Assembly: GCA_027491415.1 (NCBI GenBank)
Contig: JAOZFH010000013.1
Coordinates: forward strand, 1-61,089
Length of the DNA stretch: 61,089 nucleotides
Origin: Thermoproteota archaeon
GTDB taxonomy: Archaea; Korarchaeota; Korarchaeia; Korarchaeales; Korarchaeaceae
Reading direction: 5' to 3'
Shown here: in pieces, positions 40,609 through 51,221 of the stretch
Numbering within the stretch: position 1 is the stretch's first letter
How the letters are laid out: each line of letters opens with the position of its first letter
Notes under the pieces: model-generated
The model's database searches: none
Seen by the model: only the letters and a program-made list of their open reading frames with translations
What the model was told of the DNA's origin: nothing
Made by a program: the position numbers and the translations under genes

Positions 40609-41196
40609 TCAGGGTGTCACCACCTCCCCCAACTCCACTAGCACCGCCCCCGCCTTGAGCATATCCTCCAGGGCCCGCTCGCTGTTCCCCGGCTCGACAT
40701 CCACCCCCTTTACCGCGTCGGTCAGGACGAAGACCTCGAAGCCCAGCCGGAGCCCGTCCAGCACGGTGGCCCTCACGCAGTAGTCGGTGGCAACCCCGCC
40801 CACGAACAGCCTCCTCACCCCGAGGGCCCTCAGCCCCTCAGCCATGTCGGTGCCTTCGAAGCCGGAGTACGCCTCCCTGTCCGGCTCGGTCGCCTTGGAA
40901 ACGATGATGGTCCCCTCCGGGAGCCTGAGGTCGGGGTGGAACTCCGCGCCCTCCGTGCCCCTAACGCAGTGAGGCGGCCAAGGTCCCCTGGGCCTGAAGC
41001 TGATGTGGTTCGGCGGGTGCCAGTCCCTCGTCGCCACCACGGGCCTCCCCAGCCTGTCGAACAGCTCGATGTAGGAGTTGAGCACCGGAACGACCTCGTC
41101 CCCGCTCGGCACGGGGAGCGCGCCGCCGGGCATGAAGTCCCTCTGCACGTCCACTATGACGAGCGCGGACCTCCTCGTGATGGCCACCTTGGCCAT
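40609..41196 (-). CDS. pncA: Nicotinamidase/pyrazinamidase
   Basis: VDVQRDFMPGGALPV, TRDWHPPNH.SF, WPPHCV, KAT..DREAYSGF, GVATDYCV. Confidence 0.95.
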   Translation of the reverse strand: MAKVAITRRSALVIVDVQRDFMPGGALPVPSGDEVVPVLNSYIELFDRLGRPVVATRDWHPPNHISFRPRGPWPPHCVRGTEGAEFHPDLRLPEGTIIVSKATEPDREAYSGFEGTDMAEGLRALGVRRLFVGGVATDYCVRATVLDGLRLGFEVFVLTDAVKGVDVEPGNSERALEDMLKAGAVLVELGEVVTP

Positions 41197-41324
41197 TCTC
41201 GATCCCGCGCCCAAGGCGGTTCGACAAGTAATAACGGGTACAGCCGCGGTCTCGGCCGCTGATCGTCCACCCAAGCTCGCGCGCTTTAAGGCCTTCCGGG
41301 TGGGTACTAACTCAGGTGGGTTGA

Positions 41325-44173: not shown

Positions 44174-45202
44174 TCACACGCCGGGATCTCCGCTCATTGT
44201 GAGCGCCATGACCGCCATCTTCGCGTAGAGGTTGTCCTCCGCCTGCTCGTAGATGACGGAGTTGGGGCCGTCCATGACCTCGTCGGTCGCCTCCTCGCCC
44301 CTGAACACCGGCAACACGTGGGTCACGATGGCCCCGGGCTCCATCAGGTCGTCTACCAGCTCCTGGGTCAGCATCCAGTCCCTGTACTTCCTGTGGATCT
44401 CAAGCTCCCTCTCCAGGCCGAACTGAGACAGCCCAACCTGCCCGAGCTGCCAGGTGTGCCAGCTCCTCGGAAAGACCGCGTGGGCTCCCTTGAGGGCCTC
44501 CTTGTAGTCGTTCACTATCTCGAAGCTCCCCCCGCTCTCTTTGGCGTTCTCCCTCACCCAGCCCATGATCTTGGGGTCGAGCTCGAACCCGGGCGGGTGC
44601 GCCAGCACCACGTCCATCCCGAACCTGCTGGCTATGAGCAGGTCGGCGTGTATGCTGCACGGGCCCCTGATCTTGGAGGCGTAGGCCCACATGACCACGA
44701 ACTTCTTGCCCTGGAGCCTCTTGAGCTTCTCCCGCATTACCATAATGTCGCCGAGGGCCTGGGTCGGGTGGAACATGTCGTCGGCCATGTTTATGACGGG
44801 CTTCTTCGCCACTCGGGCGAACTCCCTTATCACCGGGTTTCCCGTGCCGTACTTGAAGTCGATCACCTTGTCCAGGAGCCTAACGCCGATGCCGTGGGCG
44901 TAGATGTCGTACATCTTGGCGACGTCCTTCACGGCCTCCCCTGCACCGAGCCTGGTGGTGCTCACGTCCACGTAGACCCCGTGCCCGCCCAAGAGGGTGG
45001 CGCCCGCCTCGAAGGCCCCCCTGGTCCTGGTGGAGGGCGCGAAGAACACCATGAAGAAGTTCTTGTTCTTCAGGACTGGCGGAAACTCCCTCCCCGCCCT
45101 ACCGATCTGCTTGTACCTCGCGGCGACCCTCAGGGCCTCCTCGATCTCGTCCATCGTCCACTCCTGGGTCGTGATAAGGTCCTTCATGTAGAGGTCGACC
45201 AT
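44174..45202 (-). CDS. Ornithine carbamoyltransferase-superfamily enzyme (YgeW/AOTCase-like)
   Basis: PSTRTR, HPTQ, HVLPVFRGEE, QAEDNL. No SMG loop. Confidence 0.88.
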   Translation of the reverse strand: MVDLYMKDLITTQEWTMDEIEEALRVAARYKQIGRAGREFPPVLKNKNFFMVFFAPSTRTRGAFEAGATLLGGHGVYVDVSTTRLGAGEAVKDVAKMYDIYAHGIGVRLLDKVIDFKYGTGNPVIREFARVAKKPVINMADDMFHPTQALGDIMVMREKLKRLQGKKFVVMWAYASKIRGPCSIHADLLIASRFGMDVVLAHPPGFELDPKIMGWVRENAKESGGSFEIVNDYKEALKGAHAVFPRSWHTWQLGQVGLSQFGLERELEIHRKYRDWMLTQELVDDLMEPGAIVTHVLPVFRGEEATDEVMDGPNSVIYEQAEDNLYAKMAVMALTMSGDPGV

Positions 45203-45355
45203 GGGGTTTCACCCCGACGACGACCCTGCGACGGCTCAGTATTAAGCCGCCCGGGTGCCGCGTTGACGTGGGTCTCCTCCGTGAGATCGGGCTTCTGGTC
45301 CGCAATAAGAAAGTGTGATGAGGGTGGGGCCCACCAGAGCCCCTCGGCACCGGTC

Positions 45356-46660
45356 TCACAGCCCGAGGACCTGCGCGTATCCCTGGAGGTCCAGGAGACC
45401 GTGGCCGGAGTAGTTGAAGAGTATGACCTCCTCCCTGCCCTCTCTCTTCGCCCTCAGGGCCTCCTCCACCGCGGCCTTGACGGCGTGGGCCGTCTCCGGC
45501 GCGGGTATCAGCCCCTCAGTCATCGCGAAGATCCTTGCCGCCTCAAAGACCTCCTCCTGCGGGTACGCCGCGGCCTCGATCACCCCCTTCCTCTTCAGGA
45601 GCGAGACCGTGGGGGCGGCCCCGTGGTACCTCAGCCCGCCGGCGTGTATCGGCGGAGGGACGAAGTCGTGGCCGAGCGTGTACATCATTATGAGGGGAGT
45701 CGTGCCCGCGGCGTCGCCGAAGTCGTACCTGTACTCCCCCTGCGTGAGCGACGGACACGCCTTCGGCTCCGCGGCTATGACCCTGTAGCTCGCCCTGCCC
45801 TCCAAGATCTCCCTGATGAACGGGAACGTCAGTCCGGCGAAGTTGCTCCCCCCTCCGACGCAGCCTATCAGCACGTCGACATCCTCCCCGGCGAGCTCCA
45901 TCTGCCTCCTAGCCTCCTCGCCTATCACCGTCTGGTGCAGGAGCACGTGGTGGAGGACGCTTCCGAGCGAGTACTTCGCCCGGTCGTCGGCCACGGCCGC
46001 CTCTATGGCCTCGCTTATCGCTATCCCCAGCGAGCCGGGGTGCTCCGGATCCTCCTCCAGGAACCTCCTGCCGGCCTGGGTCCTGTCGCTCGGTGATGGA
46101 ACCACCTCTGCCCCGTAGAGCTTCATGACGTACTTCCTGTAGGGCTTCTGGTCGTAGGAGATCCTGACCATGAACACCAGGGCCCTTATCCCGTTCAGCG
46201 CCGTCGCCAGCGACAGGGCGGAGCCCCACTGCCCCGCGCCCGTCTCGGTGGTGAGGTACTCCAGGCCCTCCCTCGCCGCGTAGAACGCCTGGGCGAGGGC
46301 CGTGTTCAGCTTGTGGCTCCCCGTGGGGCTGAGGTCCTCCCTCTTGTAGTAGATCCTGGCCGGGGTCCTGAGGTACCGCTCCAGCCTCCTTGCCCTGTAG
46401 ATCGGCGTTGGCCTCCCTATCCTCAAGTAGAGCCCCCTGAGCTCCTCGGGTATGTCTATGAACCTCTCCCTGGAGAACTCCTGCCTCACGCACTCTCTTG
46501 GGAAGAGGGGCTCGAAGGCCTCCGGTCCGAGGGGCTCCCTCGTCTCAGGGTGGACGTAGGGCGGCAGGTCCGGGAGGTCCGCCGTTACGTTGTACCACCT
46601 CCTTGGGAGCTCCTCCTGGGGGAGATCTATCCTGTCGGGCGGGGTTCCACCCGCGCTCAT
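45356..46660 (-). CDS. trpB2: Tryptophan synthase beta chain, TrpB2 type
   Basis: [64 protein letters not shown]. Confidence 0.96.
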
Positions 46661-47097
46661 ATCCCATCACGCTCCCTCGGCAGAGATAGGAGGTCGCGGA
46701 GAGGCACGTCCACCTCTGGCAGGTCGATCGGTAAGACGTGCCTAGTGGTCTTCGGTGGGAGCAGCCTCCCAGACGCCGCGGTGACCCTAACGAGTCCCTT
46801 TGAGACCGGTACGTCGAGCCTCCTGGGCCTCACTTCCACTTCCGGCGAGGAGTAGTTCACCAGCGCCGCCGGAACGGCCCTCGCGCCGAGCGACCGGAGC
46901 GCGGCCAGCCTGTGGTGGCCGTCAAGCAGGGCCCCCGTCTGGCGATCCACGAGAACAGGGATCCTGAGGACTCCGTCTTCCAGGATCTCGCGACCGAGGT
47001 GGCGCCTTCTGGCGGGAATGGTCATCTCATGGGGTCTCAGTGAGTAGATGGGAACTAAGGAGACGTCGACGGAAAGGTCCCCGGACGTGAGGGTCAC
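46657..47097 (-). CDS. ParB/Srx-fold protein, SerK/SbnI serine-kinase-like
   Basis: LRPHE, PVLVD...[25 protein letters not shown] overlap with trpB2. Confidence 0.75.
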
Positions 47098-47543
47098 GAG
47101 GGATGAGGGCGTCCTCGACGCCGGGCGGACGGACCTACTCGCGCGACCAAACTAGATCCCCCACATTCCATCCCTCCCTGGTCTGGGGGTGTTGGCCGGG
47201 ACGCAGGGCAGAGACTAAAAAGTGTTTCGGTCGGCCGTCTCGGCCCCGCGTCGGTCGGAGGGCCGGGCATCCACCAGCCCCCTCTTCGACCAGGCAGGTG
47301 CTCTCTCGAGGGTCGCGGCGGAAGGGCGGCGAGACGGGTTCATCAACCCAATGTCGGAGGGTAGTTCTATGAAAAGCATCGCGTGAGGCCAATCCGAGGA
47401 CGGGAGAAGTTCTAACGCGGCTTGTTTTTAGCGTGAGAGCCGGTTGGTCGATCCCTCGAGCGGTCAGCCCGGGCGTTCGCTTCGATCGTCGAAGGTAACC
47501 TTAATTTTATCTCGCATCTGTCGAACTCCACTCCAATCTACCC

Positions 47544-48158
47544 GTGGTGAGAACGATGGCCAAGACCGTGTGGGATAGGGAGCCGGGCGAGATCCGCAGG
47601 CCCGGCACGATTCACATAGCCATCATGGCCCTGTTGATAGGAGTGGGCGCGGTCGCCGGTACCTTCGGTAGCCTATCGGTGCCACTGGGATACGGCGTCA
47701 CCGGATTCTGGCCCGGCGTCGCCGTTCAGGCCGTCGGCGGCATCTGGTTCGGCATGTGGGGTGTGATAGCGGGATTCCTGTTCCCGTTCATCTCCAACTC
47801 CCTCGCCGGCGCCCCGCTGTACGTGAGCTTCGCCTACCTGCCATCCAACCTGATCCAAGGCCTGCTACCCGCCTGGGCCTTCAGGTACTTCAAGGCCGAC
47901 CCCAGCCTCAAGAGCGGGCGCGACTGGATCCTCTTCCTCGTCTTCGGCGTCATCGTCAACAACATCCTCGGCGCGGCCTGGGCCGTGACCGCCCTGCAGT
48001 GGTTCGGCCTCATCACCGTCGAGTCCGTCCCGCTGTTCTTCTCCGGGTGGACCATAGGAAACGGGGTGCCGGCCCTGATATTCGGCGCCATCCTGCTGAA
48101 GGCGCTCTCGCCGCTGGTTGTGAAACACAGGTCCTTCGTCAAGGGCTGGTGGGCCTGA
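47544..48158 (+). CDS. ECF transporter substrate-specific (S) component
   Basis: About 6 TM helices, FWPGVAVQAVGGIWFG. First gene of an S-T-A-A' cluster. Confidence 0.75.
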   Translation: MVRTMAKTVWDREPGEIRRPGTIHIAIMALLIGVGAVAGTFGSLSVPLGYGVTGFWPGVAVQAVGGIWFGMWGVIAGFLFPFISNSLAGAPLYVSFAYLPSNLIQGLLPAWAFRYFKADPSLKSGRDWILFLVFGVIVNNILGAAWAVTALQWFGLITVESVPLFFSGWTIGNGVPALIFGAILLKALSPLVVKHRSFVKGWWA

Positions 48159-48227
48159 GAGCCCCCGCTCCCCAACCTTTTTTGGACCCAACGGCGATCT
48201 GGGAGTCAGTGGAGAGAGTGAGGTGAG

Positions 48228-49079
48228 ATGCCCACCAAGATGAGGAGATCCCTGCTGGGGTATCTCCCCGTGGACTCGCCCATCTTCAGCCTGCACCCGA
48301 TGACCAGGCTCCTGTTCCTCCTGATAGTCAGCGCCTACCCCATGATAGTGAGGCTGCCGGAGCTGAACGTCGCAGGCTCGATCTTCATGCTCGCGCTGTT
48401 CAGGGTCTCGAAGGTGGACCTCAGGGTGATCAAGAACTACAAGATGGCCTTCGTCAACCTGTTCTTCGTCATAGCCATCGCCTACACGTTCTTCGGAGGC
48501 TACAACCCGGACTACAGGGTGCTGATCGAGCTGGGACCGGTGAAGGTGTGCTGGGAGAACCTCAGGTGGGCCATGGTGGTGTACATTCAGCTGATCTTCG
48601 CCATCCTGATCATGATCTTCTTCCTCAGCACCATGAGGGAGAGGGACATAGTGGTGGGGCTCAGGGCCCTCAGGGTGCCCTTCGTGCTGGCCTACATGGC
48701 CGGCCTGGCCCTCAGGTCGATTGGCCTCTCGATAATAGACTTCAACACGATAAGGGAGGCCGAGAAGGCACGAGCCCTCGACCTGCAGGCCCTCCCCTTC
48801 TCCGAGAAGGTGAAGAAGTTCGGCATGTACATAGTCCCTCTGGTCGCGCTCGCCATAAGGAGGTCGGACGAGGTGTCCAACGCCCTCGACTCCAGGGGGT
48901 TCAGGTTCACGGGGCTGAAGTCGGGCAAGAGAACCGACTACATCCTGTCCAAGTACAGGATGACCAAGCTCGACTACGCGGTCCTGGCCGGTATGGGCGT
49001 GTTCCTCGCTGGAATCATCCTGATCAGCATCTACACCGACTGGCTCGCGCTGGAGAGCTCCCTTCTCTACCGGATATGA
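48228..49079 (+). CDS. ecfT: ECF transporter transmembrane T component
   Basis: DSPIFSLHPMTR, EAEKAR and ALDSRGF (two conserved Arg motifs). Confidence 0.9.
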   Translation: MPTKMRRSLLGYLPVDSPIFSLHPMTRLLFLLIVSAYPMIVRLPELNVAGSIFMLALFRVSKVDLRVIKNYKMAFVNLFFVIAIAYTFFGGYNPDYRVLIELGPVKVCWENLRWAMVVYIQLIFAILIMIFFLSTMRERDIVVGLRALRVPFVLAYMAGLALRSIGLSIIDFNTIREAEKARALDLQALPFSEKVKKFGMYIVPLVALAIRRSDEVSNALDSRGFRFTGLKSGKRTDYILSKYRMTKLDYAVLAGMGVFLAGIILISIYTDWLALESSLLYRI

Positions 49080-49080
49080 G

Positions 49081-49950
49081 GTGATGGGGTTGGCGGAACC
49101 GATCATCAGGGTCGAGGGGCTCAAGTGGAAGTACGAGGGCTCTAGGGACTGGGTCCTCAAGGGCGTGGACCTGGAGATCCACCAGGGGGAGTTCGTCGGA
49201 ATAGTGGGCCCCAACGACTCCGGCAAGACGACTCTGGCCATGAGCCTGAACGGACTCGTGCCCAACAACTACCCCGGCGTGATGGAGGGCCGGGTCGTCG
49301 TGGACGGGATGGACACCAGGGAGCACTCCGTCGCCGAGATAGCCGAGAGCGTGGGCTTCGTGTTCCCGGACCCGGAGAGCCAGTTCCTCTCGATGACGGT
49401 CGAGGAGGAGGTCGTCTTCGCCCTAGAGAACCGAGGGCTCCCGAGGGAGGAGATAGAGGAGAGGATGTGGTGGGCCTTAGAACTCACGAACATCCCGGAG
49501 GACTACCTGGAGAAGCCCCCCTACGAGCTCAGCGGCGGGGAGAAGCAGAGGGTGGCCATAGCGAGCGTGCTGGCCATGAGGCCAAAGATAATCGTGCTGG
49601 ACGAGCCGACCTCCATGCTGGACCCGATAGGCAAGACCGAGGTGATAGAGGTCCTGACGGAGATGAAGAGGAGGTACAACGCCACCGTGATCGTCATAGA
49701 GCACAGGCTGGAGGACATCGCCCCGCTGGCGGACAAGATGGTCCTCGTCTACCGCGGGACGATACCGAAGGTCGCTCCGCCGAGGGAGTTCTTCCAGGAC
49801 GTCGACTTCCTGCTTGAGCACGACGTGTTCCCGCCGGACGTGATGGTGCTGGCCAACGAGCTGAGGAGGCGCGGGCTGTACGACGGCCCGGTGCCCATGA
49901 CCGTGGACGAGGCCGAGAGCATAGTGAGGGGGATCCTGGGGAGGAGGTGA
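49081..49950 (+). CDS. ecfA: ECF transporter ATPase A
   Basis: GPNDSGKTT, LSGGEKQR, LDEPTSMLDP, IEH. Confidence 0.93.
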   Translation: MMGLAEPIIRVEGLKWKYEGSRDWVLKGVDLEIHQGEFVGIVGPNDSGKTTLAMSLNGLVPNNYPGVMEGRVVVDGMDTREHSVAEIAESVGFVFPDPESQFLSMTVEEEVVFALENRGLPREEIEERMWWALELTNIPEDYLEKPPYELSGGEKQRVAIASVLAMRPKIIVLDEPTSMLDPIGKTEVIEVLTEMKRRYNATVIVIEHRLEDIAPLADKMVLVYRGTIPKVAPPREFFQDVDFLLEHDVFPPDVMVLANELRRRGLYDGPVPMTVDEAESIVRGILGRR

Positions 49951-50792
49951 CGGGCGTGGGAGAGGCTGTGAGGGTAGATCACATCAGCTACGTGTACCCC
50001 GACGGGACCGTGGGGCTGAAGGAGGCCGCGCTTACGATACAGGAGGGCGAGTTCCTTGCGTTCATAGGCCAGAACGGCTCCGGGAAGACCACGCTGAGCA
50101 AGAACATCTCCGGCCTGCTCAAGCCCACCACCGGTGACGTCTGGGTTTTCGGGAGGAACACCAGGGAGGCGCCGATGTCCGAGCTGGCGACCCTCGTGGG
50201 GTACATCTTCCAGAACCCGGACCACCAGCTGTTCAACCAGACCGTGTACGACGAGATAGCCTACGGCCCGAGGAACCTGAAGCTCCCGGAGGAGGAGGTC
50301 GAAGAGCGCGTGACGGAGGCCATGAGGATCGTCGGATTGGACGAGTCCTACAGGGAGGAGCACCCGTTCTTCCTGAGCAAGGGGCTCAGACAGAGGGTCG
50401 CGATAGCCAGCATACTGGCCATGAGGCCGAAGGTCATCATAGTGGACGAGCCCACCACGGGGCAGGACTTCAAGCAGTCAATAGACATCATGGACTTCCT
50501 GACTATGCTGAACAGGGAGCACGGGCACACGATCATCATAATCACCCACGACATGCCCATCGTGGCCAAGTACGCGGAGAGGACCGTCGCCATGGCCGAC
50601 GGCAGGATTCTGCTGGACGGTCCCACGAGGGAGGTCTTCGCCCAGGCCGAGGCGCTGGCCCAGGCCAACATCAAGCCCCCGCAGATAACGAGGCTGGCCC
50701 AGAGGCTCGGCGACCTGGGGATACCTCCAAACGTGCTGTCCATCGAGGAGATGGCCGACCTGATAGAGTCAGCCCTGAAGGGGAGGGAGTAA
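49947..50792 (+). CDS. ecfA: ECF transporter ATPase A'
   Basis: GQNGSGKTT, FQNPDHQ, LSKGLRQR, VDEPTTGQD, ITHD. Followed by a T-tract near 50805. Confidence 0.93.
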   Translation: MTGVGEAVRVDHISYVYPDGTVGLKEAALTIQEGEFLAFIGQNGSGKTTLSKNISGLLKPTTGDVWVFGRNTREAPMSELATLVGYIFQNPDHQLFNQTVYDEIAYGPRNLKLPEEEVEERVTEAMRIVGLDESYREEHPFFLSKGLRQRVAIASILAMRPKVIIVDEPTTGQDFKQSIDIMDFLTMLNREHGHTIIIITHDMPIVAKYAERTVAMADGRILLDGPTREVFAQAEALAQANIKPPQITRLAQRLGDLGIPPNVLSIEEMADLIESALKGRE

Positions 50793-50933
50793 CCCTCCTG
50801 CCGCCTTTTTTGGATCTCCTCGGAACTAGAGGCCTCGCCCTCCGCCGGCCGCCTAGGGGCCCGACAGGCGACTGAACGCCCGACCTTAGATACGTTAAAA
50901 TTGGCCAGTCACACCTCTGCCTCGGTGGAGCGC

Positions 50934-51221
50934 ATGTACGAGATGAGGAGGTACGCGAGGGCCTTCGTCCTGCTGTCCACGGAGCTCGGCAAGGAGAAGG
51001 AGGTCATCAAGAGGGTCATGGAACTCCCGGAGGTCGAGGAGGCCCACATAGTCCCCGGAGACTACGACGTGCTCGCCGTGCTCAGGGTGAGGCGGGACAT
51101 CGTGGCCCCCTCCGAGGAGGAGGTCATGGACGTCGTGCTGGACAAGATAGCCAGGATACCGGGGGTGAAGGACACCCACACGATCATTCCCACCCACTCC
51201 TTCACGAAGAGACAGGAGTGA
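50934..51221 (+). CDS. Stand-alone Lrp/AsnC ligand-binding (RAM) domain
   Basis: AFVLL...LPEVEEAHIVPGDYDVLAVL...IARIPGVKDTHTII. No HTH. Confidence 0.85.
   Translation: MYEMRRYARAFVLLSTELGKEKEVIKRVMELPEVEEAHIVPGDYDVLAVLRVRRDIVAPSEEEVMDVVLDKIARIPGVKDTHTIIPTHSFTKRQE

Follow-up and report, generated by a model that had tools for sequence, protein, structure and literature searches.

Kinases that act on free L-serine have so far formed two small groups of proteins with a ParB/Srx-type domain. SerK of Thermococcus kodakarensis (TK0378, 242 residues; PF0380 in Pyrococcus, structure 1vk1) is described as an ADP-dependent kinase specific for free serine and as a predicted source of O-phosphoserine for a beta-replacement enzyme dependent on pyridoxal 5'-phosphate (PLP); its gene is reported to lie outside any operon, and its clear-cut homologues to be confined to four genera (Makino 2016, PMC5120207). 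SbnI of Staphylococcus (254 residues; 5ujd, 5uje, 6nr6) is titled a bifunctional protein, regulator and kinase, in NCBIfam and PDB, and acts with SbnA and SbnB in the synthesis of staphyloferrin B. It is encoded beside a PLP enzyme that consumes O-phosphoserine, and the title of a cited reference (Verstraete 2018) ties SbnA to O-phosphoserine through the serine kinase SbnI. Among the possible consumers of such a product, TrpB2 enzymes are given as O-phospho-L-serine dependent in a paper citing Busch 2014 (PMC11917138). Merkl 2007 (PMC1854888) reports no conserved trpB2 neighbourhood outside trp operons and leaves a second function of orphan trpB2 genes open. Two questions have stood since TrpB2 was first described: the role of its stand-alone genes, and the origin of the O-phosphoserine that it prefers. 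Here we analyse a two-gene locus in a stretch of 61,089 nucleotides from a korarchaeal genome (the window hereafter), in which a 146-residue protein resembling a shortened SerK, which we call mini-SerK, is encoded immediately ahead of a TrpB2. We propose that the small protein probably makes O-phosphoserine for this TrpB2, which would convert serine and indole into tryptophan.

The two-gene locus

The window is positions 1 to 61,089 of contig JAOZFH010000013.1 in assembly GCA_027491415.1 (Thermoproteota archaeon; Korarchaeia; Korarchaeaceae), an assembly of 1.78 Mb that is 96% complete. The features that concern us first are the following.

46657..47097, minus strand: mini-SerK, a truncated SerK/SbnI-type predicted free L-serine kinase, 146 residues, GTG start (from the open reading frame list, NCBIfam, PDB matches and fold)
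45356..46660, minus strand: TrpB2, a stand-alone TrpB-like PLP enzyme, 434 residues, ATG start (from NCBIfam models above their cut-offs and PDB relatives)
46657..46660, minus strand: four-base overlap of the TGA stop of mini-SerK with the ATG start of trpB2 (bases 46660..46657 read ATGA)

The original prediction, made from the letters of this DNA, had described a 146-residue reading frame overlapping the start of trpB2 by ATGA. The overlap is seen in the minus-strand bases, and so, in the translation, are the motifs named at the same time, PHE (residues 22-24), DGHHR (59-63) and PPKTTRH (114-120). The small reading frame is a real gene, as 36 proteins match it at E <= 0.001 (among 416 candidates scored), and the window's genome holds one copy of it. 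The arrangement of stop and start codons points to translational coupling of the two genes. A four-base overlap recurs at other loci in both gene orders, with the kinase-like gene first at L002 and L004 and with TrpB2 first at L023 and L044.

The identification of the larger gene as trpB2 is upheld by both NCBIfam models, NF009057 (694 bits, cut-off 366) and TIGR01415 (669.1 bits, cut-off 518.85), whereas the ordinary trpB model gives 152 bits against a cut-off of 392. The closest PDB entries are 4qys and 6hte, 'Tryptophan synthase beta chain 2' (E 1e-142). The PLP-binding lysine K117, within a GSHKLN stretch, is invariant in 25 aligned TrpB2 sequences, and the protein is 53-96% identical to the 24 others in that alignment, which come from the two genome surveys described below.

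A truncated relative of SerK and SbnI

The small protein is not readily recognised by family models. No Pfam family matched it at E <= 0.01, ParB_N (PF02195) included, and a precomputed PF02195 match exists for 4 of 36 homologues. In NCBIfam the best model was SerK (NF053625; E 1.9e-16), with 60 bits against a cut-off of 380 and a best stretch covering model positions 14-98 of 244. The second was SbnI (NF033589; E 6e-6), with 25.8 bits against a cut-off of 350 and model positions 7-82 only. In a phmmer search of PDB, residues 10-89 aligned with SerK residues 16-99 and residues 106-136 with SerK residues 211-241. This two-piece alignment indicates that mini-SerK corresponds to SerK minus roughly residues 105-200. 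These ~95 residues, most of the second domain of SerK, have no counterpart in the small protein, which thus consists of a ParB/Srx-fold N-terminal domain followed by the last ~40 residues of the SerK C-terminal domain. A family profile built from 36 members gave the same picture: it found SerK (5x0b) at E 2.6e-25 and SbnI at 1.4e-13, with ParB, Noc and Srx at 0.007 or worse, and its second stretch fell on SerK residues 202-241 but was insignificant against SbnI (2.7 bits).

A model of mini-SerK calculated by AlphaFold from a 36-row alignment (predicted local distance difference test 94.1, predicted template modelling score 0.87) agrees with these matches. Foldseek placed it closest to 1vk1 and 5x0b (TMq 0.80), then to SbnI (0.70-0.73) and, at about 0.4, to ParB and Srx. 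VIA-align, run on 48,161 representative chains, superposed it on SerK 5x0b with Z 14.2 and a root-mean-square deviation (rmsd) of 2.0 over 131 of the 146 residues, at 30% identity, the alignment spanning chain residues 13-242; SbnI followed with Z 13.6 over 135 residues. Arabidopsis Srx reached Z 8.4 and ParB-like proteins 6.6-7.0. SerK is reportedly a two-domain protein with its active site between the N- and C-terminal domains (Nagata 2017); most of the latter domain is absent from mini-SerK. The structural overlay on SerK and SbnI that the original prediction had proposed as a check supports a relationship to both proteins. Its assignment of the protein to the ParB/Srx fold holds by structure and by the SerK and SbnI models, but not by Pfam ParB_N.

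The catalytic glutamate expected near the N-terminus is retained, since E24 aligns with Glu30 of SerK, the residue that is mutated (E30A, E30Q) in structures 5x0e, 5x0g, 5x0j and 5x0k. Likewise the SerK counterpart of D59-G-H-H-R63 is D69-R73, and for K116-T-T-R-H120 SerK has the same five residues. The family has 11 invariant columns, 10 of which carry the same residue in SerK. Among 85 non-redundant family members, H62 and R63 are present in all 85 and E24 and D59 in 84, the exception being one degenerate copy (L104, discussed below).

With Srx and the N-terminal (CTPase) domain of ParB the small protein has in common the core fold and the position of an arginine-containing nucleotide motif, but the match is far weaker than with SerK and SbnI. 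Sulfiredoxin chemistry requires a catalytic cysteine, and mini-SerK has no cysteine at all. Neither a helix-turn-helix nor a dimerisation domain is found in the 146-residue model, and the protein lacks the DNA-binding domain of ParB as well as the extra domain of SbnI. The fold and the sequence matches together support the view that it is a relative of SerK and SbnI and not a generic ParB protein. We class it as a shortened form, new among proteins of the SerK/SbnI type, that, judged by its model scores, falls outside both curated families. No full-length SerK above the cut-off was found in any of 43 genomes of the window's phylum.

Gene neighbourhoods in the class

The family profile was used to search 40 species genomes of the window's class, with neighbouring genes assigned by tblastn and hmmsearch. 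It found 23 mini-SerK loci in 19 of the 40 genomes, with these neighbours:

14 loci (L086-L097, L099, L104): TrpB2 on the same strand, 0-64 bases away
8 loci (L098, L100-L103, L105-L107): a cysK-like gene, on the same strand or divergent
1 locus (L108): no neighbour of the PALP family found; the locus is close to a contig end

Thus 22 of the 23 loci adjoin an enzyme of the PALP family, while by an arithmetic estimate ~1.4% of the window's genome lies within 1.5 kb of its six PALP genes. The linkage to TrpB2 in other genomes, the absence of which had been named beforehand as a reason to abandon the prediction, is found at 14 of the 23 class loci, and outside the class, with the two genes in reverse order, in Patescibacteria and Micrarchaeota. 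Three genomes (G008, G031, G034) each carry two mini-SerK paralogs, one linked to TrpB2 and the other to cysK. Most genera of the class have the pair as a rule, but it is absent from the largest genus, which we denote g3. Two loci show signs of decay of the module: at L099 (G031) TrpB2 is split into two pieces, and in G032 (L104/L121), where TrpB2 is intact, the mini-SerK next to it no longer has the Glu, nor the D-G of its motif.

Wider neighbourhoods across prokaryotes

A wide scan of all prokaryotes, with one genome per species, returned 79 loci, 63 of them with a clear member of the mini-SerK family. Two of these (L002 and L004) are the class-search loci L088 and L091, so the two sets overlap. 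A PALP-family gene lies within 1.5 kb of mini-SerK at 23 of the 63 loci. The neighbours at these 23 loci, and then six further loci in siderophore-type clusters, are as follows:

6 loci (L002, L004, L019, L023, L044, L062): TrpB2
9 loci (L005, L007-L011, L013, L035, L061): CysO type
2 loci (L029, L036): CysK/M type
4 loci (L017, L039, L041, L059): SbnA type
2 loci (L003, L006): D-cysteine desulfhydrase family
5 loci (L038, L045, L046, L048, L054): siderophore-type cluster with an HpcH aldolase, an Orn/DAP decarboxylase, mini-SerK and a TonB receptor
1 locus (L058): siderophore-type cluster with IucA/IucC

The CysO neighbours match 1wkv, an O-phosphoserine sulfhydrylase, at E 1e-75. The family therefore adjoins three enzymes that are each described as users of O-phosphoserine, namely TrpB2, CysO and SbnA. 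At L041 the gene order is mini-SerK, SbnA (389 bits, cut-off 350) and SbnB (388 bits, cut-off 327), which mirrors SbnI-SbnA-SbnB. More generally, a mini form of ~135 residues replaces full-length SbnI in bacterial clusters resembling that of staphyloferrin B (L038, L039, L041, L045, L046, L048, L054, L058, L059), the hosts being Nitrosomonadaceae, Collimonas, Burkholderiaceae, Zooshikella and Microvirga. The arrangement in the window resembles that of SbnI in that a ParB-fold protein, here a predicted serine kinase, is encoded beside a PLP enzyme that would consume its O-phosphoserine; the partner in the window is TrpB2, not SbnA.

TrpB2 precedes mini-SerK at L019 and L023 (both Patescibacteria) and at L044 (Micrarchaeota). 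At L023 (2712-5436), TrpB2, mini-SerK and a tryptophanyl-tRNA synthetase (268 bits) stand in a row, a gene order that would connect the pair, in a reduced genome, with the supply of tryptophan. In a family tree (85 rows, 144 columns, quick search), the TrpB2 label requires 5 changes against a mean of 16.5 after shuffling, and none of 500 shuffles was as low; the well-supported branches force 1 change. The tree is poorly resolved at depth, and the opposite gene orders are the only hint of independent origins of the TrpB2 link. A cysK-linked clade (5 of the 9 cysK-labelled rows) has 97% support and stands apart from the TrpB2-linked clade of the window, and the bacterial siderophore group falls inside a clade with 83% support.

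No fusion of the kinase-like domain to a PALP enzyme was found in the 10 proteins scanned of 16 longer ones (E <= 1e-6, 330-917 residues, among the best 8000 candidates scored); a blank of this kind counts for little. Proteins P0038-P0048 from metagenomes (809-917 residues) have an N-terminal mini-SerK domain (E 1e-30 to 1e-37) followed by ~730 residues, a part for which no Pfam family was found in the six proteins scanned.

TrpB2 without a tryptophan pathway

The original prediction had noted that neither trpA nor other trp genes lie nearby, and this absence extends to the whole 1.78-Mb assembly. The best trpA match there is 15 bits against a cut-off of 102, and there are no matches to indole-3-glycerol phosphate synthase or to the chorismate-binding family of anthranilate synthase. 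It follows that the pair is not part of de novo tryptophan synthesis. TrpB2 is the only TrpB-type gene of the assembly; it has six PALP genes in all, and the other five comprise a cysK that passes its cut-off (368 bits), three genes resembling threonine synthase and a member of the D-cysteine desulfhydrase family. The same imbalance is seen in the class, where TrpB2 occurs in 35 of the 40 genomes and trpA in 1. Tryptophanase was not found in the window's genome, the Beta_elim_lyase model giving only cross-matches of 22-31 bits to aminotransferases. Without tryptophanase, the cell would need to take its indole from the surroundings, and salvage of external indole by the pair fits these observations.

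A degenerate kinase-like domain in CysO-type sulfhydrylases

The family profile also matches the CysO-type neighbours themselves, within their first ~70-135 residues. The matches, one in each of nine CysO proteins, are L005:1908-2237, L009:4430-4759, L013:3404-3853 and six more neighbours, and correspond to residues 2-76 of 1wkv. In an hmmsearch of the nine proteins, L013 scored 27.5 bits, L005 27.0, L009 15.3 and the others lower, with E-values that refer to nine sequences only. Comparison by hhalign of the mini-SerK family with the nine N-termini gave a probability of 97.0% (E 9.9e-11, 72 columns), and the CysO N-terminal profile reached SbnI at E 0.045. VIA-align superposed the mini-SerK model on residues 2-76 of 1wkv (Aeropyrum pernix) with Z 6.7 and rmsd 2.5 over 74 residues; this Z is in the range of common folds and is supportive only jointly with the sequence evidence. 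The residues of the Glu, DGHHR and KTTRH positions are replaced in the fused copies, so that the CysO N-terminal domain, although homologous to mini-SerK, is presumably not a kinase. CysO-type O-phosphoserine sulfhydrylases thus seem to have a dead version of the kinase-like domain joined to their PLP enzyme, and in many cases a neighbouring gene encodes a live version. In the literature searched on O-phosphoserine sulfhydrylase and the Aeropyrum N-terminal domain, we found no link to the ParB fold.

Proposed function and competing explanations

We propose that the 146-residue protein would be a free L-serine kinase in minimal form, from the lineage of SerK and SbnI. A nucleotide would be bound at the DGHHR motif of the ParB/Srx core, Glu24 would act as general base to deprotonate the serine hydroxyl, and phosphoryl transfer would yield O-phospho-L-serine. 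The co-translated TrpB2 would then eliminate phosphate to form aminoacrylate and add indole to give L-tryptophan, which would make the pair a self-contained module for indole salvage. As with SerK, the predicted role is that of an O-phosphoserine source for a PLP beta-replacement enzyme, but here the kinase gene would be coupled to that of its user. That mini-SerK supplies TrpB2 in this manner seems to us somewhat better than an even bet. This reading is built on homology and genomic context and is the best available; the parts of it that we infer are the kinase activity of the truncated protein, the donor nucleotide (ADP, ATP or CTP), the origin of the indole and the preference of this TrpB2 for phosphoserine, the last by analogy with the tested TrpB2 enzymes.

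Several observations weigh against it. The score with the SerK model is far below the cut-off (60 versus 380 bits) and ~95 residues of the second domain are missing from a form that would presumably retain kinase activity. The association with TrpB2 is also dispensable and not obligate. Genus g3 has TrpB2 in 21 of 21 genomes but mini-SerK in 4, all four copies being beside a cysK-like gene, and mini-SerK is absent from the 12 TrpB2 loci fetched of these 21, whose flanks of ~2 kb gave the family profile no match below E 1. The TrpB2s of these 12 loci are 72-79% identical to that of the window. A second TrpB2 of genome G002 likewise has no mini-SerK next to it. Across prokaryotes, mini-SerK is without a PALP gene inside 1.5 kb at 40 of the 63 wide-scan loci, among them seven in Bathyarchaeia (L018, L022, L025-L028, L033) that lie beside BacA (undecaprenyl-diphosphatase) and a flavodoxin. 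The Bathyarchaeia clade keeps all the motifs, and a supply of phosphoserine to a PALP enzyme does not explain the BacA setting. The original prediction had also suggested checking whether serA and serC are absent. On the serC side, both class-V aminotransferases of the window's genome resemble NifS/IscS. On the serA side, the genome has a short dehydrogenase resembling phosphoglycerate dehydrogenase (280 bits, cut-off 454), which could be a second source of phosphoserine, by the usual route. This short dehydrogenase occurs in 36 of the 40 class genomes, whether the kinase-like protein is present or not, and so does not discriminate.

Other explanations can be offered. The small protein could be a nucleotide-binding accessory or regulatory subunit that sits on its PLP partner (TrpB2 here, CysK or CysO elsewhere) and tunes it to the nucleotide state. 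The loss of most of the second SerK domain would suit such a role, as would the dedicated TrpB2 and cysK paralogs in three genomes, which are not obviously needed for a freely diffusing product. The fused dead domain of CysO shows a non-catalytic use of the fold beside a PLP enzyme, and ParB-fold proteins are described as binding CTP, ATP or GTP as switches (PMC12704722, where tryptophan, TrpB and PLP are not mentioned). However, the free copies keep the residues E24, H62 and R63 almost without exception whereas the fused CysO copies have lost them, which is the contrast expected if the free copies are enzymes. Moreover, in bacteria the mini form takes over from full-length SbnI within SbnA/SbnB and siderophore clusters, a setting that requires a kinase. 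We consider a purely accessory role unlikely. A related possibility keeps the kinase and adds contact: mini-SerK, having lost the lid domain of SerK, would dock on TrpB2 or CysK, the partner would complete the serine site, and phosphoserine would be handed over outside the free pool. Such contact would account for the separate paralogs for TrpB2 and for cysteine synthase within one genome, and also for the dead domain of CysO, which would be either a remnant of such a complex or the place where the neighbouring live kinase docks. A complex prediction for TrpB2 and mini-SerK scored 0.00 against a mark of 0.32, which says nothing either way on binding, and we hold this docking mechanism for a tentative suggestion with a small chance of being right.

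The chemistry itself could differ, with a kinase acting on another small molecule such as threonine or homoserine, or with TrpB2 using another nucleophile to make a different beta-substituted amino acid. The genome has no recognisable source of indole, neither tryptophanase nor trpA, the same kinase-like family serves three beta-replacement enzymes, and a second selective function of orphan trpB2 was left open earlier (PMC1854888). Against this stand the strong scores of the enzyme on both TrpB2 models, its identity to other TrpB2s, the tryptophanyl-tRNA synthetase that follows the pair at L023, and the reported specificity of SerK for free serine (PMC5120207). We regard another substrate or product as rather improbable. 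Finally, some homologues are named 'ParB N-terminal domain-containing protein' or 'ParB-like chromosome segregation protein Spo0J', and PF0380 was once reported as a nuclease (PMC5120207), so that a ParB-like nuclease or DNA-binding protein with a meaningless adjacency to trpB2 could be considered. Such a protein would have to do without a helix-turn-helix or dimerisation domain, match ParB, Noc and Srx far worse than SerK and SbnI, and by chance lie next to a PALP enzyme at nearly every class locus, well beyond what position alone would give, with a four-base overlap recurring in both gene orders. This explanation is very hard to sustain.

If the phosphoserine-supplying function is confirmed, a dedicated and co-translated serine kinase would answer the question of the TrpB2 substrate, and the pair would be a two-gene unit for making tryptophan from salvaged indole in organisms that lack the pathway, here a whole class. 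A widespread family of ~130-170 residues that is unnamed or labelled ParB-like would gain a function. The known free serine kinases, at present two small groups, would then extend to a broad family in archaea and bacteria, and ~145 residues could suffice for this chemistry. In the literature searched we found nothing joining TrpB2 with a serine kinase or with O-phosphoserine, the latter blank being weak since the usual spelling is O-phospho-L-serine, and the TrpB2 titles among the matches listed include none on a kinase partner. The serine kinases put forward in a GapMind preprint of 2026 belong to another family (DUF1015, 'SerBK'), and TrpB2 does not occur in that text. What is new here is the class-wide distribution of the pair, the paralogs dedicated to TrpB2 and cysK, the loss of the trp pathway around an orphan TrpB2, and the degenerate domain of CysO.

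Surroundings of the pair in the window

Two further features flank the genes:

45316..45336, minus strand: terminator-like hairpin with a T-rich tail, 20 bases past the trpB2 stop (one such site; shuffles average 1.8)
47098..47543, no strand: intergenic spacer of 446 bases between the pair and a divergent operon for a transporter of the energy-coupling factor (ECF) type

The hairpin likely marks the end of the kinase-trpB2 unit, but is weak on its own because shuffled sequences average 1.8 such sites. The spacer has no sigma-70-like promoter site, as expected for an archaeon. The divergent ECF-type operon (47544-50792, plus strand) encodes a 204-residue membrane protein that resembles an S component and exceeds no family cut-off, together with a T component of the CbiQ type and two ABC ATPases. 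The transporter was considered as a part of the system and set aside: among the 23 class and 79 wide-scan loci, an S component is kept beside the pair only at L087 and L090, from relatives of the same genus, and the operon is therefore probably unrelated to the pair. It is followed by a stand-alone Lrp/AsnC ligand-binding-domain protein of 106 residues (50901-51221, plus strand), and an isochorismatase-family hydrolase is encoded at 40609-41274 on the minus strand, outside the pair; no link to the pair was seen for either. The next gene on the minus strand begins 153 bases downstream of trpB2 and encodes a carbamoyltransferase-like protein of 342 residues (44174-45202) that is below every NCBIfam cut-off, its best match being N-acetylornithine carbamoyltransferase (220 bits versus 288).

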